Below the pieces are notes generated by a model. That model made no database searches and was not told the DNA's origin. It was given only the letters and a program-made list of their open reading frames with translations. DNA of 64,000 nucleotides. Source: Candidatus Poriferihabitaceae bacterium. Its GTDB lineage: Bacteria > Pseudomonadota > Gammaproteobacteria > Arenicellales > Poriferihabitantaceae. Positions 22,915-39,761 of this stretch are shown piece after piece. A program made the translations under genes and the position numbers. The stretch is taken from the NCBI GenBank assembly GCA_965204165.1, contig OZ241969.1:4088735-4152734 (forward strand). Direction: 5' to 3'. Every line of letters begins with the position of its first letter. Position 1 is the first letter of the stretch.

Positions 22915-23478
22915 TTGCCCGCGGTCGTGTTCAATAATCCATTTGATTCATTTCACAATACGGTTGCCGAAGCAAAGGAGGAACGCGAACAGCTCGACCG
23001 GCTGCTGACAATCTCCACGCCCCGGGAGCGTCTGCTGGTCGCCGCCATCGCCGTGATGCTGCTCATCCTCGGGACCTGGTTCTTCTATGGCAACGTGCCC
23101 CGCAGCCTTGCGCTGGACGGCGTGCTGGTCGAGCCCGGCGAAGGCCTGTCCGAGGAAAGCAGGTCCTTGCAGGCGCTCGTCTGGGTCAAGAGCGACATCG
23201 CGCCGTATATAAAGGCCGGGATACCGGCGGTGATAGAGCTGGATATGGCGGACGGAAAGGCGGACACGCTTGACGGGGAGGTCGCGGACATTTCCGCCGT
23301 ACCCCTGCAAGGAGGGCTGGCGACGCTCGAGACCGCGGTGCCGGTGTCCGTCCACCGCATCGTCGTCACGCTCGATGAAAGTCACGACCTGACTTCCCTT
23401 GTGGACGGGGAGTGCCGGATCTTCCTCGAACTTGGCAGGCAATCACCGATTGCATTGTTCCGAATGAAGCAATCGTAA
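22915..23478 (+). CDS. short HlyD-like periplasmic adaptor of the NHLP bacteriocin export system
   Basis: 187 aa. The N-terminus (EQLDRLLTISTPRERLLVAAIAVMLLILGTWFF) looks like NHLP-system HlyD proteins, but the coiled-coil hairpin appears absent. Start (TTG 22915 or GTG 22927) is uncertain. Confidence 0.65.
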   Translation: MPAVVFNNPFDSFHNTVAEAKEEREQLDRLLTISTPRERLLVAAIAVMLLILGTWFFYGNVPRSLALDGVLVEPGEGLSEESRSLQALVWVKSDIAPYIKAGIPAVIELDMADGKADTLDGEVADISAVPLQGGLATLETAVPVSVHRIVVTLDESHDLTSLVDGECRIFLELGRQSPIALFRMKQS

Positions 23479-23479
23479 G

Positions 23480-25684
23480 ATGGTCGCCTCTAAAGGGGCT
23501 GCCGGTCAGGCCGCCACAGACTCCCGGAAACGGAAGGTAGTCACCCCGGTCCTGTTGCAGATGCACGCGTCGGAATGTGGCGCAGCCTGCCTCGGCATCA
23601 TCCTGGCCCACTTCGGGCGCTGGGTGCCGCTTACCGAATTGCGCGAAAAATGCGAGGTGAGCCGCGACGGCAGCAGTGCCGCGAGCATCCTGCGCGCCTC
23701 GAGACACTACGGCCTCGAATGCAATGGATTCAGCATGCGCGCCGAGCAACTGCAAAAGCTGGAACTGCCCCTGATACTGTTCTGGCAATTCAGCCATTTC
23801 GTCGTCCTCGAGGGGTTCGACGGCCGCAACTACCATCTCAATGACCCGTCCACGGGACGACGCAGGCTTTCCGTTGAAGAATTCAACAAGGGCTACAGCG
23901 GCGTTGCACTACGGTTCAAGCTCGGCGCCGATTTCAAGCCCGGCGGCGAGCAACCCGGCCTGTTCAGGCAACTGGGCACCCTGCTCGGCGGATCATGGAA
24001 TGTGCTTGCCGGGGTGATTGCCTGCGGGTTCATGCTGACGTTGCTGGCACTCCTCGTCCCCGTATCCATCAGTGTTTTCGTGGACGACGTCCTGGAAAAC
24101 CATGGACCCTGGGGCGGACTGGTGGCGGCCCTGCTGTGCGGCGGTGTCCTGGTATACATCCTGTCCCTGCTCAAGCACCGGTTCCTGAAGCGTCTCGCAA
24201 CCCGGATTTCGGTGACCGGCTACAATCGAGGCCTGTCGCGCCTGTTGCGGTTGCCGGTGGAGTTTTTCGAGCACCGGCTGGCCGGCGACCTGACCGACCG
24301 GGTCTCGTCCATTGACAGAATCGCGAAGAATCTGACGGACCAGTTCCTCGTGCTCATGATCGACATGGCCATGAGCGTGGTGTTGCTCATCGCCATGCTC
24401 GCCTACGATATCCGGCTGACGCTGGTTGTGCTGCTGCTGGCGCTTGTGCACGGCATCCTGGCCCACTTTCTGAACGCCCACCGGGCGGTCCGAAGCCAGA
24501 CGATGAGGCGCGAACAGGGATTGCTGATCGGCCTCGGCATGCAGATGCTGAACCATGCGGACAACCTGCGCATGACGGGAGCGGATGACCGGTTTTTTTC
24601 GCGCTGGAGCGGTCAGCAGGCACGCGAACTGCAGGCGCGCCAGGCCTATTCCGAACTGGGTTCCGTCAACACCGCGCTTCCGGGCCTGATTGCCACACTT
24701 CGCAGCGCGGCGATCCTCGGCATCGGAGGCAGCATGGTCATGAGCGGGCAGATGACCCTGGGGGCGCTGGTGGGCTTCTATATCCTGGCAGAACTGTTCC
24801 TGACCCCGATCGGGCACTTCCTGGAATTCGCCGACAAGCGCCAGGCGCTCGAAACCGACCTGCAGCGGGTCGATGACATCTCCAAGGCCGCCGAAGACCC
24901 GGTCTTCAACCGCCGGAGTCCGGAATCGGACTCGATTCCCACGTTCAACGGCCGGCTCCAGCTGGCAGGCCAGCTCGAACTGCGCCATGTCACCTTCGGT
25001 TTCAACAAGAGCCGCCCGCCCCTGATCAAGGACTTCAGCCTCGTGATCAGGCCGGGACAGCGGGTTGCCGTGGTCGGTCCCAGCGGCTCCGGCAAGTCGA
25101 CCCTGGCGCGCCTGGTTTCGGGTGTCTATCAGCCCTGGTCGGGGGAAATCCTGTTCGATGGCCACCTGCGGGATGAGATACCCGAGGAAGTGCTGCGGCA
25201 GTCCATTTCCATGGTGGATCAGGAGGTCGTGCTCTTTTCCGCGTCCGTACGCGACAATATCACCCTGTGGAATCCGGCCATCCCGGATGAAGCCATTTTC
25301 ACCGCGACGCGGGATGCCCAGATCCATGACGAAATTCTGATCCGGCCCCAAGGATATGCGACCCTGGTCGAAGAGGGCGGGGCGAATTTCAGCGGCGGCC
25401 AGCGGCAACGGCTGGAAATCGCCCGCGCGCTGGTGGGCCATCCGACGGTACTCATCCTGGACGAGGCGACCAGCGCTCTCGATGCCGCGACTGAGGAATT
25501 CGTTGATGATGCCCTTCGGCGGCGCGGCGTCACCTGCCTGATCGTGGCTCACCGGCTGAGCACCGTGCGGGATTGCGATGAAATCATCGTGCTCGACAAG
25601 GGCGTTACGGTGCAGCGCGGCACGCATTCCGAGCTGATTGCGGACCGGGAAGGCACGTACTACAAGCTGGTCAAGTCGGGCTGA
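23480..25684 (+). CDS. NHLP-family bacteriocin export ABC transporter, C39 peptidase/permease/ATPase
   Basis: C39 Cys/His motifs (ECGAACLGII, HFVVLEG), 6-TM domain, Walker A GPSGSGKST, signature FSGGQRQRL. Confidence 0.9.
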   Translation: MVASKGAAGQAATDSRKRKVVTPVLLQMHASECGAACLGIILAHFGRWVPLTELREKCEVSRDGSSAASILRASRHYGLECNGFSMRAEQLQKLELPLILFWQFSHFVVLEGFDGRNYHLNDPSTGRRRLSVEEFNKGYSGVALRFKLGADFKPGGEQPGLFRQLGTLLGGSWNVLAGVIACGFMLTLLALLVPVSISVFVDDVLENHGPWGGLVAALLCGGVLVYILSLLKHRFLKRLATRISVTGYNRGLSRLLRLPVEFFEHRLAGDLTDRVSSIDRIAKNLTDQFLVLMIDMAMSVVLLIAMLAYDIRLTLVVLLLALVHGILAHFLNAHRAVRSQTMRREQGLLIGLGMQMLNHADNLRMTGADDRFFSRWSGQQARELQARQAYSELGSVNTALPGLIATLRSAAILGIGGSMVMSGQMTLGALVGFYILAELFLTPIGHFLEFADKRQALETDLQRVDDISKAAEDPVFNRRSPESDSIPTFNGRLQLAGQLELRHVTFGFNKSRPPLIKDFSLVIRPGQRVAVVGPSGSGKSTLARLVSGVYQPWSGEILFDGHLRDEIPEEVLRQSISMVDQEVVLFSASVRDNITLWNPAIPDEAIFTATRDAQIHDEILIRPQGYATLVEEGGANFSGGQRQRLEIARALVGHPTVLILDEATSALDAATEEFVDDALRRRGVTCLIVAHRLSTVRDCDEIIVLDKGVTVQRGTHSELIADREGTYYKLVKSG

Positions 25685-28629
25685 TGAAGGACGCCGGACC
25701 GCAATACACATCCATCGCAGAGCTCGCCGCAAGCTCCGGCACAGCCGTGCCCTGCGCCGGCAACCTGCCGGTCAGGCTCGACGATCCGGACAGCGTCTGG
25801 TTCATCGATCAGGGCGCCGTCAACCTGTTTCTGATCGAATTCAAGGACGGGGTGGAACAGGCGGCACCACAGCATCTGCTGCGCCGGGATTCGGGATGGT
25901 TGCTGCCGGGCGTCGCCCCGGACGTACGGGACGATGGCCAGGACACTACGCTCAGCCTGATGGCCAAGGGAATGCCGGGCACAATGCTGAAACGGCTGCC
26001 GGCGTCCCTGCTGTCCCAGGCCGATCCGACGGAACTGGCGGAGCAGGCCGACACCTGGCTGAACGCCATCACCGGCACGCTGTCGCGCTTTGCGAGCCCC
26101 CTTCCGCGTCCGAACGCCTTGGCCGAACCCGGTCTGGCGCAAACCCTTTCTCCCCCCTGCACGCTGTCCACACGGCACCGCGTGGTATGGGTCAGCAAAC
26201 CGTCGCACGGCGCAGTCCTGTTCATGGATATCGTCGACCAGGCGGAACTTGCCGAGGCCGGCGGTGCAGGCGAAACCATGCTTCCGCTGACACGGACCAG
26301 CTGGATCACCCTGTTCGAAGAGACGACACTGACGGGCCAGTCTACCGAAACATTGGCGCAGCAAGGCACGCTGCTGCCGGCGCTCGCCACCTTCCACGCG
26401 GTCGCCTTCACCCTGGAACGCCTTAACCGCCGCCTGGCCGTGGTCGATGACGTGAATCTCGAGCGCGCGCGGACAACCAGCCGCCGCACGGCCGAAAAGG
26501 TTGCCAGGCAACGGCTTTTCAATATCTATGATCTGCCCATTGACCGGGATGCCAGTGTCGAGGACACGGCTCTGGAAGATGCCCTGCAGGTCATCGGCCG
26601 CCATGAAGGCATCGATTTCAGGATTCCGGCGCGCACGGGACCTGCCGATATTCCGATCGGTCTCGTGGACGTTCTCGACGCATCGGGCGTACGCGCCCGG
26701 CGCGTGCGTTTCAAGGACGAGGGAACCTGGTGGCGCGGGGACAGCAACGCGATGCTGGTATTCCGCCCGGAAGACGGGCAGCCCGTGGCGTTGCTTCCGG
26801 GAATGTTCGGGCGCTATCGGGAATACGACCCGGCCACCAAGCGCACTACGCGGATTACCGCGGACCGCGCCAGCGCGCTTGGAGAGGAAGCCTGGATGTT
26901 CTACCGGCCATTGCCGTCGGGGAACGTGAATCCGGCAGACCTGCTGAAAATCGCCCTGCACGGGTCGGCCGCGGATCTGGCGCGGCTGGTGATTGCCGGG
27001 CTCCCGGGCGGCCTGATCAAGCTCCTGCCGGCACTTGCGCTCGGATTCGTTGCGCATGAAGTTACTGCGGGCGGAAACGTCGAGGCGCTCTATGCCGTGG
27101 CCGTGGCGCTGGCGGGATTCGGCCTGCTCGGCGCCCTGCTGCATCTTCTTCAGGGCACTGCGATGATGCGGCTCGAGGCGCGCGCAGCGTCACGGGTCGA
27201 AGCCGCCTTCTGGGACCGCCTCATGCGTCTTCCGCCAAGCATCCTGCACCGCCAGCCGGCAGGCGACCTGGCCATGTCGGGAATGACCTTCCAGAATCTT
27301 CGCGACGGCCTGCAGGGAGTCGTTGCCGACAGCTTCCTGTCGATCATTTTCCTGCTTCCGACGTTCGGCGTCATCTTCTTCTACGATGCCACCCTCGGGA
27401 GCATCGCCCTCGCCTTCAGCCTGGCGTCCCTGCTGATCATCGCGGTCCTCGGATGGCGCCAGATTTTGCCGTATGGCCGGATGATCAGTGCGGCGCGGCG
27501 CGTAGCCGGCCAGCTGTTCCAGATCGTGGGCGGCATTACCAAGCTGCGCGTGGAAAATGCGGAAGGGTCGGCTTTCGCCATCTGGGCGCGGGGCTACCGC
27601 GAGCAGAAACGCGCGGAACTCGAACTGGGCGCGCTCGAGGGGCATTCCCGGGCATTTGGCGCCGCGCTCCCCTTTCTCGCCGGCGGGGTACTGCTTTTTG
27701 CGGTGGTGTCGGTGGGAGAACGGAACGTCCCGGTCGGCGATTTTCTTGTCGTCTACACGGTCTTCATCGTATTCCAGACCGCCATCGCCCGGCTCGGCGA
27801 GTCCTTCGGCACCGTTGCCGCCATGCTGCCGGCGTTCGAACAGATGCGCCCGCTACTCACCGCGGTTCCCGAGGCCGAGGTCGAAGGAGAGCCGGTTGAA
27901 TATCTGGGCGGCGACATCCTGTTCGACCACATTTCCTTCCGCTATGATCCCGACGGTCCGCTGATTCTCGACGGGGTCACGATCCGCGCCCGCCCCGGCG
28001 AATTCATCGCGATTGCCGGCGAGTCCGGTGCCGGCAAGAGCACCCTATTCCGGCTCGCACTCGGCATTGACCGGCCAACCGCCGGTGCGGTGTATTACGA
28101 CGGCCGTGACCTCAGGCACCTGAATCTGAAGCAGGTGCGCCGGAAAATCGGCGCAGTGCCGCAATCGGTGGGGCTCCATCCCCAGGACCTCTGGGACAAC
28201 CTGGTCAGTCACCACGACGAAGTGGCGAACGAGGAAGTATGGACCGCTGCCCGGGTCGCCGAAGTGGAAGACGAGATCAGGAGCATGCCCATGGGCATGA
28301 TGACCATGGTCGGCGCCAGCGGATCTGTCCTGTCGGGCGGCGAGAGCCAGCGCGTCACGATCGCCCGATCGGTGATCGGCAACCCGCGCATCATGCTGTT
28401 CGACGAGGCCACCAACTGGCTGGACAACGAAAGCCAGGCCAAGGTAATGCGGAACCTCACAACCCTGACAGCCACCCGGATGGTTATCGCCCACCGCCTG
28501 TCCACGCTGGAACAGGCTGACCGCATCTACGTGCTGCAGGCCGGAAAAGTCGTACAGAGCGGCTCCTTCGACGAACTCATGGCGGTCGACGGGGTATTCA
28601 AAGAACTGGTCAAGAGACAGGTCGCCTGA
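25684..28629 (+). CDS. NHLP-family bacteriocin export ABC transporter, permease/ATPase with N-terminal cNMP-binding-like domain
   Basis: 981 aa. N-terminal ~300 aa beta-rich domain, then TMD, Walker A GESGAGKST and LSGGESQRV. Start overlaps the upstream stop (TGATG). Confidence 0.85.
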   Translation: MKDAGPQYTSIAELAASSGTAVPCAGNLPVRLDDPDSVWFIDQGAVNLFLIEFKDGVEQAAPQHLLRRDSGWLLPGVAPDVRDDGQDTTLSLMAKGMPGTMLKRLPASLLSQADPTELAEQADTWLNAITGTLSRFASPLPRPNALAEPGLAQTLSPPCTLSTRHRVVWVSKPSHGAVLFMDIVDQAELAEAGGAGETMLPLTRTSWITLFEETTLTGQSTETLAQQGTLLPALATFHAVAFTLERLNRRLAVVDDVNLERARTTSRRTAEKVARQRLFNIYDLPIDRDASVEDTALEDALQVIGRHEGIDFRIPARTGPADIPIGLVDVLDASGVRARRVRFKDEGTWWRGDSNAMLVFRPEDGQPVALLPGMFGRYREYDPATKRTTRITADRASALGEEAWMFYRPLPSGNVNPADLLKIALHGSAADLARLVIAGLPGGLIKLLPALALGFVAHEVTAGGNVEALYAVAVALAGFGLLGALLHLLQGTAMMRLEARAASRVEAAFWDRLMRLPPSILHRQPAGDLAMSGMTFQNLRDGLQGVVADSFLSIIFLLPTFGVIFFYDATLGSIALAFSLASLLIIAVLGWRQILPYGRMISAARRVAGQLFQIVGGITKLRVENAEGSAFAIWARGYREQKRAELELGALEGHSRAFGAALPFLAGGVLLFAVVSVGERNVPVGDFLVVYTVFIVFQTAIARLGESFGTVAAMLPAFEQMRPLLTAVPEAEVEGEPVEYLGGDILFDHISFRYDPDGPLILDGVTIRARPGEFIAIAGESGAGKSTLFRLALGIDRPTAGAVYYDGRDLRHLNLKQVRRKIGAVPQSVGLHPQDLWDNLVSHHDEVANEEVWTAARVAEVEDEIRSMPMGMMTMVGASGSVLSGGESQRVTIARSVIGNPRIMLFDEATNWLDNESQAKVMRNLTTLTATRMVIAHRLSTLEQADRIYVLQAGKVVQSGSFDELMAVDGVFKELVKRQVA

Positions 28630-28722: not shown

Positions 28723-30024
28723 ATGAAGAAACCTGCTGATGCAACCGATCGCATTGCTTCAAGAGCCGCCGAGGACAGCGACTTTCGCGCACGCCTTGTC
28801 ACGAATCCAAGGGAAACGATCGCAAGGGAATTCGGCGTTTCCCTGGACGAAGACCATGAGATACACGTGCACGAAGAAACCTATTCCGCCACGCACGTGG
28901 TGCTCCCGCCGCGCAGCAAATTCAGCGAGGCCGAGCGGAAGGAGGCGAAAGCCGGCGCAACGTCACTGGCGTTTCTTCGCAGGACGCTCCACGACCCCGC
29001 ACCGCCCATGCGCCCGCCCGCCCCCGAACGGGTGCGCTCCCGCAAGCACGCCGCCACCCCGAAGTCACTTGCCAAAGAGGGCAGGGAATGCATCCTCCGT
29101 GGCCTGGCCTTCCTGGAATCCGTGGTCGACGAATCCGGGGCCTGGCACTGCATCAGGTTCAATATCGCCGATCCGGACATTCCGCGGCATTTCGAAAAGC
29201 CCCCGTTCATTTCGGCCCATTGCGTGCTTGCCCTGGAAAGCAGCGATGAAGCCCGGGCCAAGGCCCTGTGCGACGCCACCAGGAAGTATCTCGGCAGCAC
29301 CATCGAGTATCCCGGATTGTGGCGCTACTACCGCCATCTTCCCCAGGATCTTGACAGCACCGCCGTCTGTTCGCTTGTCATCGGGACCCACCCCTGGATC
29401 TTTCTGGGAAGGAATGTCCGGCGAATACTGGCGAACCGCGACGACAACGGCTGTTTCATGACCTGGATGCTGGATGAAGCCGAACCCGATGTCGTGTCCA
29501 GCTTCCGTATCGAAGCCGATCCTGTGGTCAACGCGAATGTCATCGCCTACCTCGGCGACCACCCCGAAACCAGGGACGCCCAACGGTGGCTGGAGGCCCT
29601 GATCACCGAGGACCGGCTCAAGGACTCGTCCAAGTGGTATCCCGACACGGTCACGATCTACTATGCAACAACCCGTGCCATGATGCGCGCCGAACCCGCC
29701 CTCGACAGTCTGCGGCCGATACTTGCGGATCGAATCCTTGACCTGGGCGGCGGGAAGGGGGAATTCGGCAACCTCCTCCAGACCGCACAGGCGGTCTCGG
29801 CACTCTATAATATCGACCGCCTTGAAAGTATCGACGTGAAACGTCAGGTGGAAAGGATCATCGATTCGCAGCGTGAAGACGGCAGCTGGCCGGAACTGCT
29901 CGCGTTTGGCGACCAATCGCTGAGATGGGGCGCGTTCGGACAGATCGGGCACGGCTCTGAATCCGTGACCACCGCATTTTGCATCGAGGCCCTGGAGCGT
30001 CTCGTCGAGACCCTGGAAGCCTGA
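28723..30024 (+). CDS. NHLP leader-like domain fused to a squalene-hopene-cyclase/prenyltransferase-like alpha/alpha toroid domain
   Basis: Residues 1-78 align without gaps to the precursor at 31476-31727, including Ala-Gly at 77-78. The rest carries VVDESGAW, NRDDNGCF and SQREDGSW repeats, and GLWRYYRHLPQDLDSTAV resembles GGW..DxDDTA. Confidence 0.7.
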   Translation: MKKPADATDRIASRAAEDSDFRARLVTNPRETIAREFGVSLDEDHEIHVHEETYSATHVVLPPRSKFSEAERKEAKAGATSLAFLRRTLHDPAPPMRPPAPERVRSRKHAATPKSLAKEGRECILRGLAFLESVVDESGAWHCIRFNIADPDIPRHFEKPPFISAHCVLALESSDEARAKALCDATRKYLGSTIEYPGLWRYYRHLPQDLDSTAVCSLVIGTHPWIFLGRNVRRILANRDDNGCFMTWMLDEAEPDVVSSFRIEADPVVNANVIAYLGDHPETRDAQRWLEALITEDRLKDSSKWYPDTVTIYYATTRAMMRAEPALDSLRPILADRILDLGGGKGEFGNLLQTAQAVSALYNIDRLESIDVKRQVERIIDSQREDGSWPELLAFGDQSLRWGAFGQIGHGSESVTTAFCIEALERLVETLEA

Positions 30025-30235: not shown

Positions 30236-31354
30236 ATGGATATTGACGAGGCAATCATTCTTACCCAGGACCGTCTTGCCGAAGAGGGCGGCAGCATGGG
30301 TGAACTGCTCGGACAGTTCCGGAACCGGGTCTCGCCGATTCTGATCGGAGACCCCGAATGGAAGCGCATCCTCGAATGTGCCGGGAAACTTCCCATCACA
30401 ATGGGCGCCCTTCCATTCGGCTTTGAACTGCCGCTTCATCTGCACAGCCCGCAAGCGGATTTCGGAGTCTCCATGGCGAGCGGGACCAGGACAGCGGATT
30501 TCTTCCATGAACGCGCCCGGACCGACACGAAGGATGAAACCGCCAGGGCGGTCTCGCGGCTGTTCAGGCAAATGGATTCCGGGCACTCTCCCCTGCGTGA
30601 CGTCGTCGGCCGCAAGCTGATGCTTGAATATGACATCGGTTCGGCGCGGGACGGGGAACGTTCGCTTCCGGGCATGTTCCTGAGACCCGGAGAACGCCCG
30701 ATCATCGGCGCCGGCGGCCAGGCGGATGAGGTCGGCATGGTGGTCGACGCGCTCGTTTCCTGCCTGGGCTGGGAAATGAATGATGACCAGCGGAATAATG
30801 TCCAGCGGGTTTACCTAGCGCAGCCGGAGGATACGCGCATGGATTCGTTTGGTGTTTTCCCGTCCCGCTCACGGTCAATTCGCCTGGCGATCATGGGCTT
30901 CAAGACGCCGCAGGAAACATGCGGCTATCTTGAACAGACGGGTTGGCCGGGCCAGATCTCGGCTGTCGATTCCGTGCTCGCACGCTTCCGGGAACGGGTG
31001 AAGATCGTCCGGACCGGGCTGAATATTGATGTTCGGGATGAGGGGGTCGGCCCGACGCTCGGCCTGACCCTCATTGTCAAGCAGAGATATACGAAGGATT
31101 CACGGTACTGGATCGACGGCCTGACCGACTGGGACCCGTTACTGAAGGCCTTGAGCCACGAGGACCTTGTGGCTCAGGAGAAACTGACGGCGCTTGCCGA
31201 CTGGGTTTCGAAACCGACAATTCTGTTTGCGAAGTCCGGGCGCTTTGTCCTATTGCGCGGCATTCACCACATCAAGCTGGTGATCACCGAAAACCGGCTG
31301 GGAAAAGCCAAGGCCTACGTATTTATGGTGCTTTCCGGGGCGGTCCCGGAATAG
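30236..31354 (+). CDS. hypothetical protein (372 aa), possible ABBA-barrel fold
   Basis: GAGGA RBS 6 nt before ATG 30236. Ten short alternating beta-like segments in five pairs (FGFELPLH/ADFGVSMA ... HHIKLVITE/AKAYVFMV). No family was recognised with certainty. Confidence 0.6.
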   Translation: MDIDEAIILTQDRLAEEGGSMGELLGQFRNRVSPILIGDPEWKRILECAGKLPITMGALPFGFELPLHLHSPQADFGVSMASGTRTADFFHERARTDTKDETARAVSRLFRQMDSGHSPLRDVVGRKLMLEYDIGSARDGERSLPGMFLRPGERPIIGAGGQADEVGMVVDALVSCLGWEMNDDQRNNVQRVYLAQPEDTRMDSFGVFPSRSRSIRLAIMGFKTPQETCGYLEQTGWPGQISAVDSVLARFRERVKIVRTGLNIDVRDEGVGPTLGLTLIVKQRYTKDSRYWIDGLTDWDPLLKALSHEDLVAQEKLTALADWVSKPTILFAKSGRFVLLRGIHHIKLVITENRLGKAKAYVFMVLSGAVPE

Positions 31355-31404: not shown

Positions 31405-31475
31405 CATTCAAACACTCTATGTATGCGGACCCGGGTTGTTCCGCAAAATGGCCGGCTGATCACCGGCCGCTTCGT

Positions 31476-31727
31476 TTACCAGCAGCAGCAAAGACCGGCT
31501 GAGATGGCCTCAAGTTGCTCTTCGGTAATGTTCGGATCCGGCGGCAGGGCGAGATGCACCGTCTGCATGTCGCTCTCATGGATTATGATGTTCATCGAAT
31601 CGGGAATCGTGACCCCCAGTTCGCCACTGATCGTAGTCTTCGGATCGGCAAGCAACTGTTGCCTGAATTCCGTGTCCAGAGCAGACTTCTCGACAATCTG
31701 CTTCAGCATTTCATCACCGCTTCTCAT
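31476..31727 (-). CDS. NHLP (nitrile hydratase leader peptide)-type RiPP precursor, predicted core LCCCW
   Basis: 83 aa: ...DTEFRQQLLADPKTTISGELGVTIPDSMNIIIHESDMQTVHLALPPDPNITEEQLEAISAG-LCCCW-stop. AAGGGG RBS 7 nt upstream of the ATG. Confidence 0.85.
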   Translation of the reverse strand: MRSGDEMLKQIVEKSALDTEFRQQLLADPKTTISGELGVTIPDSMNIIIHESDMQTVHLALPPDPNITEEQLEAISAGLCCCW

Positions 31728-31825: not shown

Positions 31826-33444
31826 CAGCAATTCCCGCTAAGGGTTAGCTCCATTGTGTCAGGGAGTGTGATCCGCAGGAGGTTGTGGTTTTAAAGGGAT
31901 CGGGGCGCAGCGGTCGTTACAGCCACCACTGGGGCTGTAGAACTCATCGGGTCGGTAAACGCTGAAGAATCGACCTGAACACCCGCCGGTCACGGCGTGA
32001 TTCAGGGCGGTTCAGGCAGCGCGGGATTGTTTTTGTACCCCCGCGCAATGACCTGATACAGTTTCTCCCAACTGTCTATCAGGAACAGGCTGAACAGGCC
32101 CCTCATCTTGCGCCACAGCGCGGCGCGGCTGTACATGGCCTGGTGTGCCGCATTGAATACGGCACAGCAGCGCAACTGGATCTGGTCCACCAGAAACGCC
32201 AGCATCATCAGGTGCATCAGCACCGTCGACAGGTGCTTGTTGCCGTGACCATAATTGTGTTCCAGGCCGTAACCCTGGTTCTTCAGCGTGTTGAAGGTTT
32301 CGTTCTCTATCTTCCAGCGGGCCCGGCCGGCCCGCATCAACTCCATCAGGTTCGATTCGTCGATCGGGATATCGGTGACCCAGCAAAAGCGCTGCACCTT
32401 GCCCCCGGGACGGTGCTCCCGGTACTCAAGGAAGTTCACCTCCAGATCAAAGTGGTCGTCGTTCAACGGCACCCGGTTCAGATACCGGAAGCGATGCACT
32501 ACCCCCTGCCCGTCCCGGCACTCATGTTCCGGAACGCCCCGGGTCTTCGACACCCAGTCGTACAGAAACCGGTGGTCCCCTTCCTTCGCACCCAGCACAT
32601 AGCGCATGTCCAGTGACTCCAGCAGCCGGATGTGCGGACCGTTCGAGGCCAGGCCATCTTCAACCACCAGCAACCGCAAATGCGGATGGTTGCGACGGAC
32701 ACGCTTCAGCAGCCGCCTTGCGGCATTCCGCTCACAGTCGTTCTTGCCGGATCCGTCCCCCTTCAGGATCGGTTCTGGCATCAGGGGGATCACCTCGCGG
32801 CAGTCCGGATGCACCAGCACCGCACCGAGCAACTGGTGATAGTACGTCACCCGACCGTCACGATGATGCTTGCTGCAGCAGTGCGCGCAATGCACCTTCT
32901 GCGAGGAGAACAGCCCGGTGCCGTCCACCGACAGCACATAGCGGCCGTCCAGCACCTCGAAACCCTCCAGACCCTTGCCCCGCTGCAGCAGCGCAAACAG
33001 CCGCTTGTATACCGGCTCGAACACCCCCGGGTCCAATTCGTCCAGCCGTTCCCTCATGTACGTGTCGCTCGGCGCCTGCGCCACCCCGTACAGATGCTTC
33101 AGATTGTGCCGCACCGCTTCCTCGGACTGCGACCGCTCGAACTGCAGCAGCGATGGATATTTCAGACCGAACATCGCCAGCGCCGACATCATGACGTCCG
33201 ACAACGGGAACTTGCGGGTGCGCTTCGTGTCCGGAATCTCCTCGAAACTCGACCGGATCGACTGCAGCAATCCCTGTGCGCTCAAGTGTTTGCGATTTGA
33301 TGGTTCACGCATCCAATTTCACCTGGTTCATGAAATTGGAACTGTATGATACCAGAATTCCTGAAAAACTTTACGAAAAAGTTTTTTCCGTATCTCTCTA
33401 TCACCTTGTATTTGCTTGACTTTTTAAACCAGCGGGAATTGCTG
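31826..33444 (-). mobile_element. IS element (IS4-like DDE transposase), 1619 bp, with 9-bp target site duplication
   Basis: Terminal inverted repeats CAGCAATTCCCGCT (31826-31839) and AGCGGGAATTGCTG (33431-33444). Flanked by direct GACGCCTGA at 31817-31825 and 33445-33453. Confidence 0.85.
32002..33312 (-). CDS. DDE transposase (IS4-like)
   Basis: 436 aa with HCAHCCSKHHRDG, LVVEDGLASNGPHI and RARWKIENETFNTLK (YREK-type region). Paralog at 60613-61926. Confidence 0.9.
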   Translation of the reverse strand: MREPSNRKHLSAQGLLQSIRSSFEEIPDTKRTRKFPLSDVMMSALAMFGLKYPSLLQFERSQSEEAVRHNLKHLYGVAQAPSDTYMRERLDELDPGVFEPVYKRLFALLQRGKGLEGFEVLDGRYVLSVDGTGLFSSQKVHCAHCCSKHHRDGRVTYYHQLLGAVLVHPDCREVIPLMPEPILKGDGSGKNDCERNAARRLLKRVRRNHPHLRLLVVEDGLASNGPHIRLLESLDMRYVLGAKEGDHRFLYDWVSKTRGVPEHECRDGQGVVHRFRYLNRVPLNDDHFDLEVNFLEYREHRPGGKVQRFCWVTDIPIDESNLMELMRAGRARWKIENETFNTLKNQGYGLEHNYGHGNKHLSTVLMHLMMLAFLVDQIQLRCCAVFNAAHQAMYSRAALWRKMRGLFSLFLIDSWEKLYQVIARGYKNNPALPEPP

Positions 33445-33682: not shown

Positions 33683-34585
33683 ATGTCCACAACGGGGCCT
33701 GTGCGGATGTTCCCTGACCACGAAACCGACGCAAACAGGTATGTCCGCCAGGGCCGGCTCAAGGGCTTGCCAAACCGCCGGGGCGCCCGGTTGAATTCCG
33801 TGCACAGTGTCTTGGCGCTGGCATGCTTGTGCCTGCCAGGTGCACTTGCCCTTGCCGAGGAAGAAACGCCGGAAGACAAGGGCCTGAGGATCGCGCGCGA
33901 AGCAAGCGCCCTTAACGACGGCTTCGGGGATTACACCGCCGGCATGCGGATGGTGCTGCGCGACCGGCAGGGCCGGGAGAGTGTCCGTCAGATGCGCTTC
34001 AAGGTGCTGGAGATGCAGGAGGATGGCGACCGGAGCTTGTTCGTGTTCGACCAGCCACGGGACGTGCAGGGCACCGCCCTCCTGACGCACGCCCACATCA
34101 ACACCCAGGACGACCAGTGGCTGTATCTGCCGGCCCTGAAAAGGGTGAAGCGCATCAACGCCTCGTCACGTTCAGGGTCATTCATGGGGAGCGAGTTTTC
34201 CTACGAAGACATGAGCTCTTCGGAGGTGGAAGAGTACACCCATAGGTTTCTTCGCGACGAGCCATGCGGGGCGCTCACCTGTACGGTGATCGAGCAGGTC
34301 CCCCTGGACAGGAAATCCGGATACAGCCGCAAGGTCGTTTGGCAGGATACCGGCGAACTCCGAACCTGGAAGATGGAGCTTTACGACCGCAAGGACTCGC
34401 ATCTGAAAACTCTCACGTTCGAGAACTACCAGCAATACCTGGACCAGTACTGGCGGGCGGGAGAACAAACGATGGTTAACCACCTGACCGGTGCGAGCAC
34501 GGTGCTGCAATGGGCCGATTTCCGGTTTCGCACCGGACTTGATGAAAGCGAATTCACCAAACCGGCTCTGCGACGCGTGCGCTGA
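33683..34585 (+). CDS. outer-membrane lipoprotein-sorting (LolA-like) protein, usual partner of COG1033 RND exporters
   Basis: DDQWLYLPALKRVKRINASSRSGSFMGSEFSYEDM is typical of the LolA_like family. The signal peptide (SVLALACLCLPGALALA) suggests a later start, for example TTG 33791. Confidence 0.8.
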   Translation: MSTTGPVRMFPDHETDANRYVRQGRLKGLPNRRGARLNSVHSVLALACLCLPGALALAEEETPEDKGLRIAREASALNDGFGDYTAGMRMVLRDRQGRESVRQMRFKVLEMQEDGDRSLFVFDQPRDVQGTALLTHAHINTQDDQWLYLPALKRVKRINASSRSGSFMGSEFSYEDMSSSEVEEYTHRFLRDEPCGALTCTVIEQVPLDRKSGYSRKVVWQDTGELRTWKMELYDRKDSHLKTLTFENYQQYLDQYWRAGEQTMVNHLTGASTVLQWADFRFRTGLDESEFTKPALRRVR

Positions 34586-35060: not shown

Positions 35061-35092
35061 TCAGGGTGATCCATCAGGGTGATCCATCAGGG
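35061..35092. repeat. 13-bp tandem duplication (TCAGGGTGATCCA x2.5) spanning the halogenase start codon
   Basis: Units at 35061-35073 and 35074-35086, plus a partial third at 35087-35092. Each full unit carries a GTG; only 35079 is in frame. Confidence 0.8.
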
Positions 35093-36353
35093 CAGCAAAT
35101 CCTTGCAGAAGATCGCGGTTGTGGGACGCGGAACCGCGGGGTCTCTGGCTGCCGCCAGCGTAACGCGCCTTCTCTCCGGCCGGGACTACGAGCTGCACCA
35201 CATCTATGACTCGCGTATCCCGGTCATCGGCGTGGGTGAAGGCAGCTGGCCGAGCCTGGTTCAGCAGTTGCAGCACCTGACGGATCTGCCCCACGATACC
35301 GTCCAGCAGCGTCTCAAAGGAACTCGCAAGTACGGGGTCGCATTCGAGGGATGGGGGGTGCGCGACCAGGATTTCACCCACTACTTCATGCCGGTAAAGG
35401 AGTCCTACGCCTATCACCTGTCCGCCGACCTGATGGGGGACCTGCTGCACGAAAGCACGCACGCGCGCCACATCGACGCGAAAGTGCTCGGGATCACCAG
35501 GGTGGACGGCGGCGCGGAAGTGGAATTCGAGGGCCTGGCGCCGGAACGCTACGACCTGGTCTTCGATGCCCGCGGATTTCCCAGGGAACTCCAGCCCGAA
35601 CAGCACATCGACATTTCGTTCATTCCCACCAATACGGCCGTCATCCGCCGCTGCCCGGCAATCTTCGGGGAGGATCGGGGCGGACCGGTCCTGCAACATA
35701 CCTATACCCGCGCGGTTGCGCGTCCGCACGGCTGGATTTTCGTCATTCCGCTTCAAGTACACACATCCTACGGGTACATCTTCAACCGCGATGTATCCGG
35801 CCTTGACGAAGTCGAGTCGGATTTCGATGCCTTCCTTGCAACCGATGGCGTACCGGAATTCGAGCAGCGCGCCGTCATCCAGTTCCCCAATTTCGTCCAT
35901 CGGCAGATGTACGACGGCGCGGTGGCCCGCATCGGCAATGCGGCGGCCTTCATGGAGCCCCTCGAGGCAACGGCCATCGTGTCCGCCCAGTTGCAGATCG
36001 GGATGGTCCTCCAAACGCGTCTCAACCGCCCAATCGAGCATATTGAACGCGACGCACCGGTTGTCAACCGGTTCCTCGTCAACAACATGCTCTGTTACGG
36101 CCTGTTCGTCGGCTGGCACTACTGCCTTGGCTCAAAGTACGACAGCGGGTTCTGGTGCCATGCCCGTGACCACGTCTGGCCACGGCACCGCAAGGCGGCG
36201 GCTCCCGAGTCCGTGGACTGCGACGCACTCCGCAAGTTCGACGGCATGTTCGAACTGATGCGCCAGCCGGAAATCGGCGAGGCGGACTGGAACCGGATGT
36301 GCGCAGTCCCCCTCACAAGCTATGACCAGATGTCCCGCGGTCTTGGCTGCTGA
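35079..36353 (+). CDS. FAD-dependent tryptophan-halogenase-family protein
   Basis: GxGxxG (VVGRGTAGSLAA), IGVGEGSWPSL, GWIFVIPL (WxWxIP-like) and FMEPLEATAI (F.EPLES-like). Confidence 0.8.
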   Translation: MIHQGSKSLQKIAVVGRGTAGSLAAASVTRLLSGRDYELHHIYDSRIPVIGVGEGSWPSLVQQLQHLTDLPHDTVQQRLKGTRKYGVAFEGWGVRDQDFTHYFMPVKESYAYHLSADLMGDLLHESTHARHIDAKVLGITRVDGGAEVEFEGLAPERYDLVFDARGFPRELQPEQHIDISFIPTNTAVIRRCPAIFGEDRGGPVLQHTYTRAVARPHGWIFVIPLQVHTSYGYIFNRDVSGLDEVESDFDAFLATDGVPEFEQRAVIQFPNFVHRQMYDGAVARIGNAAAFMEPLEATAIVSAQLQIGMVLQTRLNRPIEHIERDAPVVNRFLVNNMLCYGLFVGWHYCLGSKYDSGFWCHARDHVWPRHRKAAAPESVDCDALRKFDGMFELMRQPEIGEADWNRMCAVPLTSYDQMSRGLGC

Positions 36354-37211: not shown

Positions 37212-39611
37212 ATGGTCGCAGTAGCAGTTTCCACAGATCGGGCGATAGAGCCGTCACTACGGAACGCCATTCCGCATTTCCTGCCCCTCGCGGTCTTTCC
37301 CCTGATTTTCGCCGCCGCCCTGTACGGCGGCTGGTGGATCGCCGGGCCGTTCGTCTTTTTCATGATCGCGGGTCCGCTGGACCTTGCCTTCGGCCTGGAC
37401 GGGCGGAACATGAACCCGAGGGCGACACCGGAACACCGGCTGGTCTGGTACAACCTGTCGGCATGGCTTTGGGCATTGCTCTGGCCGGCGGCATTCGTGT
37501 TCACGCTATGGCAGATCTTCATGGTCGGACACCTGGCTCCCTGGGAAGGTGCGCTGCTGGCGATTGTGCTGGGCGTGGAAGGTCAGGGAGTATTCATCGT
37601 CGGGCACGAACTGATTCACCGGCGCACGACGTGGGAGCGGTACGTCGGGGAATTCCTGCTTGCCTCCGTTTCGTACCCGCACTACGCCACGGAACATTTC
37701 TATATCCATCATGCCTATGTCGGCACGCCGAAAGACGTGGGCTCCGCGCCCAAGGGACAGAGCTTCTGGACGTATTTCCCCCGCGAGTTGGCAAGCAACA
37801 TCCTTGGGGCCTGGAAGGTTGAACGCGGACGGATGGCGCACCGGCAGTTGCCGACCTGGCATTTCAGCAATCCGTTCTGGCGGTACGGCCTTGAAACCGC
37901 CGCCTGGTACGCGTTCGTCTATGCGTTGGGGGGATGGTGGTCTGTTCTGATCTTCATGTTCCTGTGTCTCGGGATCGTGTTCTCGATGAAAATCAGCAAC
38001 TACGTCCAGCATTACGGCCTGCGCCGGATACGCCTGCCCAATGGCCGGTTCGAAAGGGTCAGCCTGCGGCATTCATGGGGCGCCGACTACAAGTTCAGCA
38101 ACTGGATGTTCTTCAACATGCAACGCCATCCCGACCACCATGTCTCGGCGGGCAGGCGCTACCCGCTGCTGCAGCATCACGGCGAAGACGAAACTCCCCA
38201 GCTGCCGGGAACCTACGGCACGATGTTTGGCCTGGCCCTGCGCCCGAAGCGCTTCTTCGAGACGATGGACCCTCTGGTGGATCAATGGCGGGCCCACTTC
38301 TACCCCGAAATCGAGGACTGGAGCGCCTACGACAGCCCGGTTTCCGAGGCACGCCCGGAGGCACTCGACGCGATCATGGAGATTTACGGCGCCGCTCCCC
38401 GCCTGGTCAGGGTAATCGAGAGGGACCCGGAACTGCTCGATAGCCTGAAGGACAGGGAGTTCACCGATCTGGAGATGCCCGAGGGATTCGGACCGGACCC
38501 GGAATTTGAAAGGATTGCCCGCAGCGGCCTCGTGCGCGTCTACTGGACCCACGAGTTCGGTGTCGTGGAAATGAAGGAACAGATCGCCGAAATACCGGTA
38601 AAGGATGCCGCCGACGCCGCGGAGATGGTTCGGGACTGGTCGAACAACAAGGTGTTCCAGATCGGCATGCATACGTTGCGCGGCAACCTGACGCCGACCG
38701 AGGCCGGGATCGCGCTGGCCAATGTCGCCGAATCCTCGATCGACGCCGTTCTACAGGCCGTCGTGGAAGATGTTGCCGACCGTGATCCCCGCCCGGACGA
38801 AGGCGGGATGACCGCCGTCATCTTCGACGATCTGGCCAGTCGGGAAGTCGCGCCCCGTGCCGCACTCGAGATCATGTTCGTTTTCGAGGGCGGATCCGCC
38901 GATCGTCATGCGGCCCTGTACCGCCTGTATCATGGGGCACTTCGCATACTGACCCGGGCCAGCCTGCTGTTCGAGCCGACATCGGGGAAAGCCCGCGATC
39001 GCGGCGTCTATGCGCTTGACGAATTCGTGGAACACCACCGGACCGCTCCGGCAAGCGAACTGCTGGACCTGACCCGGGCGCGGTGGATCTTTACCCAGGG
39101 AGAACCCGGTATCGGGCAACGTTTCGATGATGCCCGATATTCCCTGCTTGCCGACGGCCCGACACGGGATGCGCTGATCCGGGAGCTGGGCAACGGGGCA
39201 GGCAATGAAACCAGGACCGGACAATCGCTGATCTCCAGCATGCAACAGGGGCTCCGTGATGTCGAGCGCGCCGCACGCCTGCTGCAGTTGACCCACCTGC
39301 CGGAGATGCCGGGAAGCCTGATTACCAGCAACGCGGCTTCCGTTTTCCAGGCGGGCCAGGCGCTTGAAGTGATTCCCCGTGAGGTTGCGGAGCAACTTTC
39401 CGGGGCTGCCCGCATGTGGCGGAACCTGTACGGCATCCGGCAACTGGTCATGGAGGATGACACGCCGGTCGAATCCATGCCAGACAAGGTCAGGACGGCC
39501 TTTGCCCGGTCCTGCGACCATGCCGATTTCGACGAGTTGACCGAAGCGGTCCGGGAAGCCACCGCCGCCACCGAGAGCGGACTGGCCGCCATCATCGCCC
39601 GGGGCAGTTGA
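37212..39611 (+). CDS. AlkB-like membrane di-iron hydroxylase/desaturase fused to a degenerate GlnE-like (adenylyltransferase-type) domain
   Basis: His boxes HELIHRR, EHFYIHH, NYVQHYGL and MQRHPDHH lie in residues ~130-340. Residues ~400-799 resemble GlnE repeats (..IGMHTLRGNLTPTEAG.., ..LDLTRARWIF.., ..GLRDVERAARLLQL..) but lack the GKLGG-type motif. Confidence 0.75.
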   Translation: MVAVAVSTDRAIEPSLRNAIPHFLPLAVFPLIFAAALYGGWWIAGPFVFFMIAGPLDLAFGLDGRNMNPRATPEHRLVWYNLSAWLWALLWPAAFVFTLWQIFMVGHLAPWEGALLAIVLGVEGQGVFIVGHELIHRRTTWERYVGEFLLASVSYPHYATEHFYIHHAYVGTPKDVGSAPKGQSFWTYFPRELASNILGAWKVERGRMAHRQLPTWHFSNPFWRYGLETAAWYAFVYALGGWWSVLIFMFLCLGIVFSMKISNYVQHYGLRRIRLPNGRFERVSLRHSWGADYKFSNWMFFNMQRHPDHHVSAGRRYPLLQHHGEDETPQLPGTYGTMFGLALRPKRFFETMDPLVDQWRAHFYPEIEDWSAYDSPVSEARPEALDAIMEIYGAAPRLVRVIERDPELLDSLKDREFTDLEMPEGFGPDPEFERIARSGLVRVYWTHEFGVVEMKEQIAEIPVKDAADAAEMVRDWSNNKVFQIGMHTLRGNLTPTEAGIALANVAESSIDAVLQAVVEDVADRDPRPDEGGMTAVIFDDLASREVAPRAALEIMFVFEGGSADRHAALYRLYHGALRILTRASLLFEPTSGKARDRGVYALDEFVEHHRTAPASELLDLTRARWIFTQGEPGIGQRFDDARYSLLADGPTRDALIRELGNGAGNETRTGQSLISSMQQGLRDVERAARLLQLTHLPEMPGSLITSNAASVFQAGQALEVIPREVAEQLSGAARMWRNLYGIRQLVMEDDTPVESMPDKVRTAFARSCDHADFDELTEAVREATAATESGLAAIIARGS

Positions 39612-39668: not shown

Positions 39669-39761
39669 ATGACCACCCCGGGTTCCGCCTGCGGGTGCGG
39701 GATGTGCCGCGGCGGCTGTTGCGCCGGAAACCTGAAAGAAATCATGCGCAGCCATGGATGA
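39669..39761 (+). CDS. candidate Cys/Gly-rich small ORF (30 aa; 45 aa if GTG 39624)
   Basis: MTTPGSACGCGMCRGGCCAGNLKEIMRSHG. Its stop overlaps the heterocyclase start (ATGGATGA). Not in the ORF track because it is under 60 aa. No strong RBS. Confidence 0.3.
   Translation: MTTPGSACGCGMCRGGCCAGNLKEIMRSHG

Follow-up and report, generated by a model that had tools for sequence, protein, structure and literature searches.

The srpE gene and the element upstream of it

The window, as we call the whole 64,000-nucleotide stretch of DNA analyzed here, contains on its minus strand an open reading frame of 83 codons (31476..31727), whose translation is MRSGDEMLKQIVEKSALDTEFRQQLLADPKTTISGELGVTIPDSMNIIIHESDMQTVHLALPPDPNITEEQLEAISAGLCCCW followed by a stop codon. 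Its translation, its match to the family model TIGR03793, its identity with the published SrpE peptide and its signature of purifying selection identify it as srpE, the gene for an 83-aa precursor of the NHLP (proteusin) type. The product scores 66.8 bits against TIGR03793 (cutoff 50.9, E 1.1e-18), with residues 6-78 aligning to positions 4-77 of the 77-position model. Since residue 78 is matched to the last position of the model, the similarity stops exactly at G78 and leaves over only the pentapeptide LCCCW. The leader (residues 1-78, 31494-31727) terminates in EEQLEAISAG, which includes a double-glycine-type motif, and is followed by the core LCCCW (31479-31493) and the stop codon (31476-31478). 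The supplement that describes SrpE (PMC10286304) places the double-glycine boundary between leader and core at the same AG and likewise defines the core as LCCCW. The NHLP leader and the double-glycine-type motif proposed in the first-pass annotation of this locus are thus both borne out, as are the reading frame and its good ribosome-binding site, with the Shine-Dalgarno-like sequence AAGGGG (31735-31740, minus strand) read from the sequence at a spacing of 7 nt from the ATG at 31727.

Located 3' of the srpE stop codon is a G+C hairpin with a short U-run (31445..31469, minus strand), whose stem GGCCGG...CCGGCC (31450-31468) precedes AUUUUG and folds with an energy of -18.2 kcal/mol (z = -3.0). 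Its earlier description as a perfect hairpin terminator is right as to the hairpin but slightly generous as to the terminator, because the T-run on the minus strand is below the length for the terminator rule of the tool used, and the same stem is scored as a terminator on the plus strand only, for the convergent gene at 30236-31354. The hairpin probably also serves this second gene.

The srpE reading frame is a real gene under strong purifying selection. Among 79 distinct DNA versions of srpE, the differences at the first, second and third codon positions number 681, 172 and 2298, respectively, with 2076 synonymous versus 688 non-synonymous codon changes, and a stop codon directly follows the Trp codon in every version. 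At the protein level, LCCCW forms the C-terminus of 119 of the 120 best database homologues of the window peptide, arguing against a chance reading frame and confirming the conservation of the terminal CCCW, and the Leu and the three Cys of the core are kept as strictly as the Trp in these sequences.

Upstream of srpE, the window carries a 1.6-kb insertion sequence of the IS4 family (31826..33444, minus strand), recognized by its junctions and by blastn comparison with the reference locus L001. Its transposase gene (32002-33312, minus strand) shows DDE_Tnp_1 and IS4 matches, its ends are formed by 14-bp inverted repeats (CAGCAATTCCCGCT), and the 9-bp target duplication GACGCCTGA is found at 31817-31825 and 33445-33453. 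The insertion is precise and absent from four near-identical reference contigs, which are otherwise 99% identical; a second copy of the element occupies positions 60439-62058 of the window. Given that only 98 bp separate the element from the srpE ATG, it may disturb expression, and one could envisage that the srp locus is crippled in this genome, with srpE cut off from its promoter and the gene intact but silent. The precise insertion, its target duplication and its absence from the four close contigs are compatible with such a scenario, as is a simple promoter scan, which detected no sigma-70-like promoter reading toward srpE within the 98 bp that are left. However, the same scan is equally blank on the srpE strand of the uninterrupted reference and, finding no site with or without the element, is uninformative about the effect of the insertion. 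Moreover, IS elements can supply outward-reading promoters, and the srpE reading frame and all genes of the cluster are intact, so that a silenced locus appears quite improbable.

Maturation genes and identity with the published srp system

The maturation and export genes that accompany srpE are encoded on the plus strand; their conservation was assessed as co-occurrence within 10 kb of srpE at 85 srpE loci. The enzyme at 39754..42054 is a predicted fused cyclodehydratase, which we label SrpC-type by its domain content (wHTH leader-binding, E1-like and SagD-type YcaO domains). It scores 320 bits against YcaO and lies above the cutoffs of both TIGR03604 (265 bits, cutoff 219) and TIGR03882 (151 bits, cutoff 37), in agreement with the azoline-forming YcaO postulated at this position, and its C-terminus reads ...NPVPVIA. 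Next to it, as in most srp loci, lies a gene (37212..39611) for a 799-aa fusion of a membrane di-iron hydroxylase/desaturase (FA_desaturase, 97 bits) with a GlnE-like nucleotidyltransferase half (GlnE matches), which contains the AlkB-type His boxes HELIHR, EHFYIHH, NYVQHYGL and MQRHPDHH and is present at 50 of the 85 loci. The product of the gene at 35079..36353 (Trp_halogenase, 147 bits) shares 79% identity with published SrpI along its full length and, with the catalytic K84 as well as Y102 and Y110 conserved in the alignment, is a predicted SrpI orthologue, i.e., a putative flavin-dependent peptidyl Trp brominase. As a halogenase gene is found within 10 kb of srpE at only 39 of the 85 loci, bromination is not universal.

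Export is represented by genes that agree in part with the NHLP-type export models. The C39-peptidase ABC exporter already noted at 23480..25684 is NHLP bacteriocin export subunit 1 (TIGR03796, 857.4 bits, over the cutoff of 853.3; Peptidase_C39, 118 bits) and, judging from its sequence, presumably cuts the leader after AG. It is followed by a second NHLP-export ABC subunit (25684..28629; 981 aa, of which 295 form an N-terminal extension), which scores below the cutoff of its model (TIGR03797, 666 bits, cutoff 709.4), and preceded by a short protein of 183-187 aa (22915..23478), whose weakly HlyD-like N-terminus gives 24 bits over residues 25-76 against TIGR03794 (cutoff 156) and which is conserved beside the exporter (41/85 loci). 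A TolC-family outer-membrane channel (42903..44288; TIGR01844, 269 bits, cutoff 225), also adjacent in the loci L001 and L003, is a possible exit duct for the exporter. Two further genes point to the transport of lipid-type molecules: one for an MMPL/HpnN-like RND transporter (20421..22760; MMPL, 118 bits; matches to HAE3 TIGR00921 and HpnN TIGR03480, both below their curated cutoffs), resembling lipid-type exporters and found at 30 of the 85 loci, and one for a LolA-like or TP_0789-like protein of the periplasmic lipid-carrier type (33683..34585; PF17131, 205.7 bits; 38/85 loci).

Several other reading frames were considered and set aside. The 83-aa frame at 34626-34877 (minus strand) was rejected as a second precursor, its translation being devoid of NHLP features; the 166-aa frame at 36420-36920 (plus strand) is probably spurious, as the reference contig has a Phd/PIN pair on the other strand; and the PCMT-like methyltransferase at 42158-42853 scores below its family cutoff and is present at only 5 of the 85 loci, all from the closest relatives.

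Comparison with the literature, based on later papers of the laboratory that described srp and on their supplement, leaves little doubt about the nature of the locus. The window peptide and published SrpE are identical in 67 of 83 residues (81%; 94% positives, no gaps) and in the entire LCCCW core, and the two systems also share the peptide length of 83 aa, the gene length of 252 bp, the AG boundary, a YcaO enzyme of the fused type and the ITEEQL variant of the leader. NGUY21-tagged metagenome records and MAGs with sponge-study bin names contain a peptide of exactly this sequence and a near-identical cluster, and one of the NGUY21-tagged contigs that carry the exact peptide is 99.4-99.7% identical to positions 21476-43355 of the window (22 kb). 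A preprint describes a highly transcribed 252-bp precursor gene with an ITEEQL consensus and an LCCCW core, which srpE of the window matches exactly, reports the ITEEQL variant from symbionts of Spongia and Ircinia and ranks SrpE-type peptides with the RiPP precursors that are most widely distributed and most strongly transcribed in sponge microbiomes. The core, singled out in the first-pass annotation as exceptional, is therefore anything but rare. We conclude that the reading frame is very probably srpE, the precursor gene of the srp ('sponge-derived RiPP proteusin') cluster of what is probably an uncultured sponge symbiont, with the pathway proposed below. Differences from the published system include the L(X)4L motif of the leader, in which residue 67 is Ile instead of Leu, the position of the YcaO and AlkB-like genes beyond the halogenase gene, on its far side, in contrast to the commonest srp operon order, the IS4 insertion that ends 98 bp before srpE and a toxin-antitoxin pair of the Phd/PIN type within the cluster.

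Peptide and tailoring chemistry are thus already known, and their recovery from the window is the rediscovery of a published system. The primary srp paper is reportedly that of Nguyen et al. (J Am Chem Soc, 2021), and peptide, core, cyclodehydratase and brominase are said to have been published then. With further detail added later, finding the peptide again matters little in itself; the raw sequence alone did allow the correct biosynthetic logic to be reconstructed. In published experiments, the YcaO enzyme SrpC cyclodehydrates the three contiguous Cys of LCCCW to thiazolines, and halogenation of the C-terminal Trp by SrpI depends on the leader (PMC10858898, PMC10286304), supporting the earlier assignment of the three Cys to the YcaO enzyme at 39754 and of the Trp to the halogenase. 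In Escherichia coli, SrpE was only partially modified by SrpC (PMC10286304). The chlorinated product that had also been envisaged is not to be expected: SrpI is an obligate brominase that does not chlorinate, so that only a +Br shift is anticipated. By analogy to these orthologues, the 78-residue nitrile-hydratase-like leader would dock the peptide onto its maturases, the E1-like/YcaO enzyme (39754) would use ATP to cyclodehydrate the three Cys of LCCCW to thiazolines, and the C-terminal Trp would be brominated by the SrpI-type enzyme at 35079. For the final step, we infer from the motif and from family membership that the C39 ABC exporter (23480) and its partner (25684) would cut after Ala-Gly and export the product.

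A related system is MprE/MprC/MprD of Methylovulum psychrotolerans, in which an NHLP leader with an L(X)4L motif likewise directs a fused YcaO enzyme to form azolines in a short core; indeed, among solved structures it is 8TB1, a solution structure from the MprE system, that matches the window peptide best (E 1.9e-10). The Mpr cluster differs in having ten varied cores and the azoline oxidase MprD, whereas family-model scans of the window proteins found no FMN-type azoline dehydrogenase.

Two conserved neighbors of srpE

Beyond what is published, our analysis adds the IS4 element near srpE, two neighbors resembling a prenyltransferase and a terpene cyclase, and distant counterparts of this gene pair that accompany NHLP cores ending in Trp. 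What remains of use is that the most constant companions of srpE resemble a prenyltransferase and a terpene cyclase, with genes for lipid-type tailoring and transport in the vicinity.

The first of the two genes (30236..31354, plus strand) is convergent with srpE and found within 10 kb of it at 62 of the 85 loci, at a median gap of 140 bp. It encodes a conserved protein of 372 aa, with the start codon inferred from homologues. Its AF2 model (pLDDT 86.3, with paired strands) appears to fit a ten-stranded antiparallel barrel of alpha-beta-beta-alpha repeats, and the best 50 Foldseek matches of this model in the PDB belong without exception to the ABBA prenyltransferases, with E-values from about 1e-5 to 4e-4 but modest TM-scores (0.37-0.55, or about 0.45-0.55 in general). 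Judging from the model, the protein thus looks like a PT-barrel prenyltransferase of the aromatic type. At the sequence level, the family has no relevant Pfam, NCBIfam or PDB match: neither 40 close members nor 52 diverse members, the latter collected in a profile search of 1.84 billion representatives, nor their profiles searched against PDB sequences yielded a match to PTase_Orf2, Trp_DMAT or a solved relative.

The second gene (28723..30024, plus strand; within 10 kb of srpE at 61 of the 85 loci) encodes a protein of 433 aa that combines an N-terminal NHLP-like domain with an alpha/alpha barrel resembling class II terpene cyclases. The NHLP-like domain, which scores just below the cutoff of TIGR03793 (48.4 bits), aligns with SrpE without gaps at 31% identity and has an AG at the same position, where G78-A79 is invariant. 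The structural model of the protein, although of moderate confidence (pLDDT 67), retrieves drimenol synthase, MstE, small squalene-hopene cyclases and SsDMS (Foldseek E 5e-8 to 1e-4), and PF13243 is precomputed for many of the homologues. The barrel domain contains an invariant D209-L-D211-S-T; this motif is not the canonical DxDD, but in a HMMER alignment its surroundings, PQDLDST, fall on PADADST in 8paj, a cyclase of solved structure, and distant homologues carry the canonical DVDDT and DTDDT. From the model, the C-terminal domain looks like a class II terpene cyclase. A LanC-like reading of the protein was also considered and dropped, since the fold matches are terpene cyclases and not LanC.

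Both genes accompany srpE more constantly than the halogenase gene does, and as a rule they belong to one operon with the gene for the YcaO enzyme. Remote counterparts of the two genes adjoin other NHLP precursors, whose short cores share only the terminal Trp, and a natural fusion of the two types of domain exists.

Nature of the end product

Prenyltransferase-cyclase maturases have a precedent in NctPC and ChrPC, whose primary paper is reportedly that of Hubrich et al. (Chem, 2024). In a review, these proteins are listed as maturases of RiPPs, and NctPC is described as a PT-barrel-type prenyltransferase, of low similarity to the cyanobactin enzymes, joined to an MstE-like class II cyclase and acting on a Trp residue (PMC13290415). 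Likened by fold and by the description given there, the window pair shares both folds of NctPC, and MstE itself is among its structural matches; it differs in being split into two separate genes, in the NHLP-like domain of the cyclase-like protein and in the DLDST motif. A further related system is that of PalX, likewise an NHLP-type precursor, in which the conserved C-terminal Trp is prenylated in a reaction enhanced by the NHLP domain (PMC10853753). In contrast, the enzyme responsible, PalQ, has an isoprenoid-synthase (trans-IDS-like) fold, and its system contains no YcaO enzyme, halogenase or cyclase (PMC10853753).

Given the resemblance of the gene pair to NctPC, the true srp product may carry a cyclized isoprenoid. 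In this extension of the pathway, the PT-barrel-like 372-aa protein and the NHLP-fused cyclase-like protein would probably attach an isoprenoid to the Trp before cyclizing it. It is conceivable, and we propose it tentatively, that srp is a peptide-terpenoid pathway that goes beyond azolines and bromo-Trp to place a cyclized isoprenoid on the C-terminal (6-bromo)Trp. By analogy to NctPC, the 372-aa protein would then be a split-off, highly divergent PT-barrel prenyltransferase and the 433-aa protein its class II cyclase partner with a captured NHLP-like domain, which could serve as a built-in leader mimic for docking on the same machinery, whereas the AlkB-like/GlnE-like fusion and the HpnN-like and LolA-like transport proteins would process and move a lipidic product. 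The brominated tris-thiazoline pentapeptide predicted earlier agrees with the known modifications of SrpE, but with neighbors of this kind it may be an intermediate rather than the end product. If so, the masses sought in sponge extracts so far have been the wrong ones, and the most widespread RiPP of sponge microbiomes has a very different, still undetected structure. The calculated [M+H]+ of the core is 573.18 for the tris-thiazoline and 651.09/653.09 for its brominated form, to which a prenyl group would add 68.06, 136.13, 204.19 or 272.25, giving, for instance, 923.34 for Br + C20. A literature search outside Nguyen et al. 2021 and Hubrich et al. 2024 found no link between the srp cluster and a prenyltransferase or cyclase; outside the primary 2021 paper, it also found no report of a mature natural srp product, and a survey from 2025 states that final srp structures vary.

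We consider it rather unlikely that the end product is simply leaderless Leu-(thiazoline)3-(6-Br)Trp, with the PT-barrel-like and cyclase-like neighbors binding it, conferring immunity or acting on a different substrate. Experiments have so far demonstrated only cyclodehydration and bromination, the 372-aa protein lacks sequence similarity to known prenyltransferases, and the DLDST motif of the putative cyclase is non-canonical. However, the presence of the two genes at 61-62 of the 85 loci, compared with 39 for the halogenase gene, and their usual place in the YcaO operon speak against this reading. The distant pairs next to NHLP precursors with Trp as the only shared core residue, the natural two-domain fusion and the modification of a RiPP Trp by the same domain pair in NctPC (PMC13290415) likewise favor a role of the pair in peptide maturation.

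Two further products appear less plausible than the peptide-terpenoid. The tandem thiazolines could make the peptide a metal-binding, chalkophore- or siderophore-like molecule, as suggested by analogy to tandem-thiazoline metallophores and in keeping with the dedicated export machinery of the cluster. Yet, the scan of the cluster genes turned up neither a receptor for metal uptake nor a gene of the TonB type, and the accessory genes that are conserved suggest a lipid or isoprenoid chemistry combined with transport of the lipid type, making a metallophore very unlikely. Finally, SrpE could act as a scaffold from which the modified Trp is released as a small brominated (terpenoid) indole, as in scaffold-peptide pathways such as the one leading to the ammosamides. 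Sponges reportedly contain numerous small indole alkaloids that are brominated and whose origin is unknown, and the modified residue is indeed the last one of the peptide. Nevertheless, such a release seems extremely improbable: family-model scans found no protease or PEARL-type release enzyme among the cluster genes, the Leu and the three Cys are kept as strictly as the Trp, and the C39 exporter and its matching AG site argue for export of the whole core.

Identity and conservation of srpE

On the basis of its sequence, the 83-codon open reading frame on the minus strand (31476-31727), translated as the 83 residues MRSGDEMLKQIVEKSALDTEFRQQLLADPKTTISGELGVTIPDSMNIIIHESDMQTVHLALPPDPNITEEQLEAISAGLCCCW followed by TAA, can be identified as srpE, a finding that is already known. 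In the "srp" (sponge-derived RiPP proteusin) clusters described by the Agarwal laboratory, SrpE is the proteusin precursor, and the halogenase SrpI, which depends on the leader, brominates the C-terminal Trp of SrpE (PMC10858898, PMC10286304); the SrpE leader and SrpI sequences are printed in the supplement of PMC10286304. The window peptide aligns with published SrpE without gaps at 81% identity and, from residue 57 to the C-terminus, differs from it only at position 67 (I67 instead of L67). Similarly, the window halogenase (35079-36353, +) matches SrpI at 79% identity along its full length and retains the catalytic Lys84 as well as the two self-brominated Tyr residues. A sponge metatranscriptome preprint found "a single 252 bp gene" to dominate RiPP expression; this gene encodes an NHLP precursor whose core is LCCCW and whose consensus reads ITEEQL in place of LTEEQL, and window srpE shares both this length and the ITEEQL variant.

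Scored against the TIGR03793 model, the srpE product reached 66.8 bits (curated cutoff 50.9), with G78 at the last model position and exactly LCCCW remaining, in agreement with the NHLP-leader precursor proposed in the first-pass annotation. The proposed ribosome-binding site likewise holds, with AAGGGG located 7 nt upstream of the ATG. The supposedly perfect terminator is less clear-cut: the stop codon is followed by a G+C hairpin and then AUUUUG (-18.2 kcal/mol, z = -3.0 upon folding), and a terminator scan scored this stem on the opposite strand only, for the convergent gene. The hairpin is plausibly a two-way terminator that is not of the textbook type.

In a search across 5.8 billion proteins, 696 srpE homologues were retrieved. 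Among the best 120 of them, 118 are exactly 83 residues long and 119 finish with LCCCW, confirming the terminal CCCW; the sole departure among these 120 reads ...EAVSVGHCCFW instead of ...SAGLCCCW. When 79 distinct srpE DNA versions from genomes were each compared with the window version, 681, 172 and 2298 differences fell on codon positions 1, 2 and 3, respectively, and 2076 codon changes were synonymous as opposed to 688 non-synonymous ones. The core Leu and Cys codons vary synonymously, and the stop codon directly follows the Trp codon in all 79 versions. These patterns indicate that srpE is translated and subject to strong purifying selection.

Relatives of srpE with 84-94% identity occur at no fewer than 284 genome loci, in metagenome-assembled genomes of Gemmatimonadota, Alpha- and Gammaproteobacteria, Chloroflexota, Binatia and Acidobacteriota, a host range that agrees with the published cross-phylum spread of srp clusters. 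The peptide, previously taken to be exceptional, is common, and srp is a very common sponge-symbiont cluster. The exact window peptide was found on five public contigs, two of them tagged NGUY21 (BioSamples SAMN17524319 and SAMN17524316). These two presumably belong to the metagenomic data of Nguyen et al. 2021, and one of them matches window positions 21476-43355 at 99.4-99.7% identity, with the exception of one insertion.

In the window, an IS4-family element of 1,619 bp (31826-33444) precedes the srpE start codon by 98 bp. It carries 14-bp inverted repeats (CAGCAATTCCCGCT) and is flanked by a 9-bp target duplication (GACGCCTGA); a second copy of about 1,620 bp is located at 60439-62058. Near-identical contigs from other samples lack the insertion near srpE, which is recent.

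Cluster composition and maturation

The proteins encoded in the window were compared with 85 loci, comprising the five exact-peptide loci and 80 genome loci, and a gene was counted if it lay within 10 kb of srpE. Most constant were the two ABC subunits, the C39-peptidase exporter (23480-25684, +; TIGR03796, 857 bits) in 64 loci and its partner (25684-28629, +) in 63, followed by a 372-residue protein (30236-31354, +) in 62 and a 433-residue protein (28723-30024, +) in 61. The YcaO protein (39754-42054, +), which combines leader-binding, E1-like and YcaO cyclodehydratase domains, was present in 53 loci, a 799-residue fusion protein (37212-39611, +) in 50 and the halogenase in 39. The exporter, the Trp-halogenase family protein and the fused YcaO cyclodehydratase assigned as neighbours in the first-pass annotation are borne out. 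In the most frequent layout, srpE is convergent with an operon encoding ABC subunit 2, the 433-residue protein, the 799-residue fusion, YcaO and the 372-residue protein, with a median gap of 140 bp between srpE and the gene for the latter. srpE stands alone in 9 of the 85 loci, several of which are short contigs, and one genome (contig CBDBZU010000004.1) has three srpE copies, two of them without cluster genes within 10 kb.

For the published orthologues, the three Cys residues of SrpE undergo ATP-dependent cyclodehydration by the YcaO enzyme, as had been proposed for the window peptide, and the flavin enzyme SrpI, which binds the leader at its L(X)4L stretch, brominates the indole of the terminal Trp (PMC10858898, PMC10286304). 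SrpI has no chlorination activity (PMC10858898, PMC10286304), so that of the suggested Br or Cl shifts only bromination stands. Family-model scans of the cluster genes revealed no FMN-type azoline dehydrogenase; therefore, thiazolines rather than thiazoles are expected. The C39 transporter pair would then cleave after Ala-Gly and export the product, for which a TolC-family channel encoded at 42903 may provide the exit duct. Apart from the restriction to bromine, the commonness of the peptide and the metal-binding idea, for which gene content offers no support, the earlier biosynthetic interpretation is supported.

A 2025 survey lists the srp accessory genes as "several genes of unknown function". 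Among them, the 799-residue fusion, whose gene adjoins that of YcaO in most srp loci, consists of a GlnE-like nucleotidyltransferase half and a membrane di-iron domain of the hydroxylase/desaturase kind. The His boxes of the di-iron domain (HELIHR, EHFYIHH, NYVQHYGL and MQRHPDHH) appear to be of the AlkB type. An HpnN-like MMPL/RND transporter (20421-22760, +; 30 of 85 loci) and a LolA-like (TP_0789-like) protein (33683-34585, +; 38 of 85) belong to lipid-moving types and hint at a lipidic product. An isoaspartate O-methyltransferase-like gene immediately after YcaO (42158-42853, +; 152.8 bits, cutoff 188) probably lies outside the pathway, since it occurs with srpE in the closest relatives alone (5 of 85 loci). 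A toxin-antitoxin pair (36410-37059, -), made up of a Phd/YefM antitoxin and a PIN toxin and located between the genes for the halogenase and the AlkB-like protein, is likewise limited to the closest relatives of the cluster; an overlapping 166-residue frame on the plus strand is probably spurious.

A prenyltransferase-like and cyclase-like pair

While the SrpE finding itself is of low interest, the 372- and 433-residue proteins, together with the lipid-type genes, merit further study. The 372-residue protein has no match in Pfam, NCBIfam or PDB sequences, and its wider family (682 representatives among 1.84 billion proteins in a profile search) has no Pfam model. Its AlphaFold model (pLDDT 86.3, pTM 0.86) shows paired strands and helices, and the 50 best PDB structures listed by Foldseek all belong to the ABBA aromatic prenyltransferases, with many indole or tryptophan prenyltransferases among them, so that a PT-barrel fold is predicted with confidence. 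The 433-residue protein starts with an NHLP-like domain (TIGR03793, 48.4 bits, just below the cutoff) that is 31% identical to SrpE without gaps and places an invariant Gly78-Ala79 at the position of the SrpE cleavage site. This domain may act as a mimic of the leader, as an export signal or in docking. The C-terminal domain (pLDDT 67) resembles single-domain class II terpene cyclases, such as drimenol synthase, MstE and small squalene-hopene cyclases, and an alignment with the solved cyclase 8paj pairs its invariant PQDLDST with PADADST. The fusion seems to be specific to srp clusters, because distant homologues of the cyclase-like domain lack the NHLP part.

The conserved pair and the lipid-type genes suggest that the srp natural product is a terpenoid-bearing peptide. 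According to the summary in a review (PMC13290415, citing Hubrich et al., Chem 2024), the maturase NctPC geranylgeranylates a RiPP Trp and then cyclises the chain, so that the pairing of prenyltransferase and cyclase is itself no longer new. PalQ, whose fold differs from the PT barrel, acts as a prenyltransferase on the C-terminal Trp of PalX, a further NHLP precursor (PMC10853753). In the literature searched, to which the primary srp and NctPC papers did not belong, no link of such chemistry to the srp cluster was found. It is conceivable, at somewhat less than even chances, that the srp cluster encodes a split NctPC-like maturase whose cyclase has acquired an NHLP-like domain. Against this reading, family, PDB-sequence and profile searches gave no sequence-level link between the 372-residue family and prenyltransferases, the Foldseek TM-scores of its member in the window are only about 0.5, and the cyclase-like model is of moderate quality (pLDDT 67) with a non-canonical DLDST motif.

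The neighbourhoods of five distant family members, 25-31% identical to the 372-residue protein, show that the pair travels with NHLP precursors. In locus L089, the prenyltransferase-like gene clusters with YcaO and three NHLP precursors (853-1116, 1672-1935 and 4580-4837), which end in FTSVGGPIW, FTTGNNPLW and YSFNEPW after ...SGG|. It is directly preceded, with an overlap, by the gene for a 334-residue cyclase-like homologue that has no NHLP domain and carries a canonical DVDDT motif. Another member is followed by a 317-residue cyclase-like homologue with DTDDTA, and a further one, on a short contig, adjoins a truncated NHLP precursor. The representative search also yielded a protein fragment, P0499, in which the C-terminal end of a cyclase-like domain is naturally fused to a PT-barrel-like domain that follows it, a Rosetta-stone link connecting the two families. 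In L086, the prenyltransferase-like gene lies just downstream of an 83-residue NHLP precursor (7519-7770) ending in ...VAGG|RGGNW, and in L091 it is found beside a C39 exporter and a precursor (924-1190) finishing with ...GG|GNQVFCSGWL. The short cores in L086, L089 and L091 all have Trp as their last or penultimate residue.
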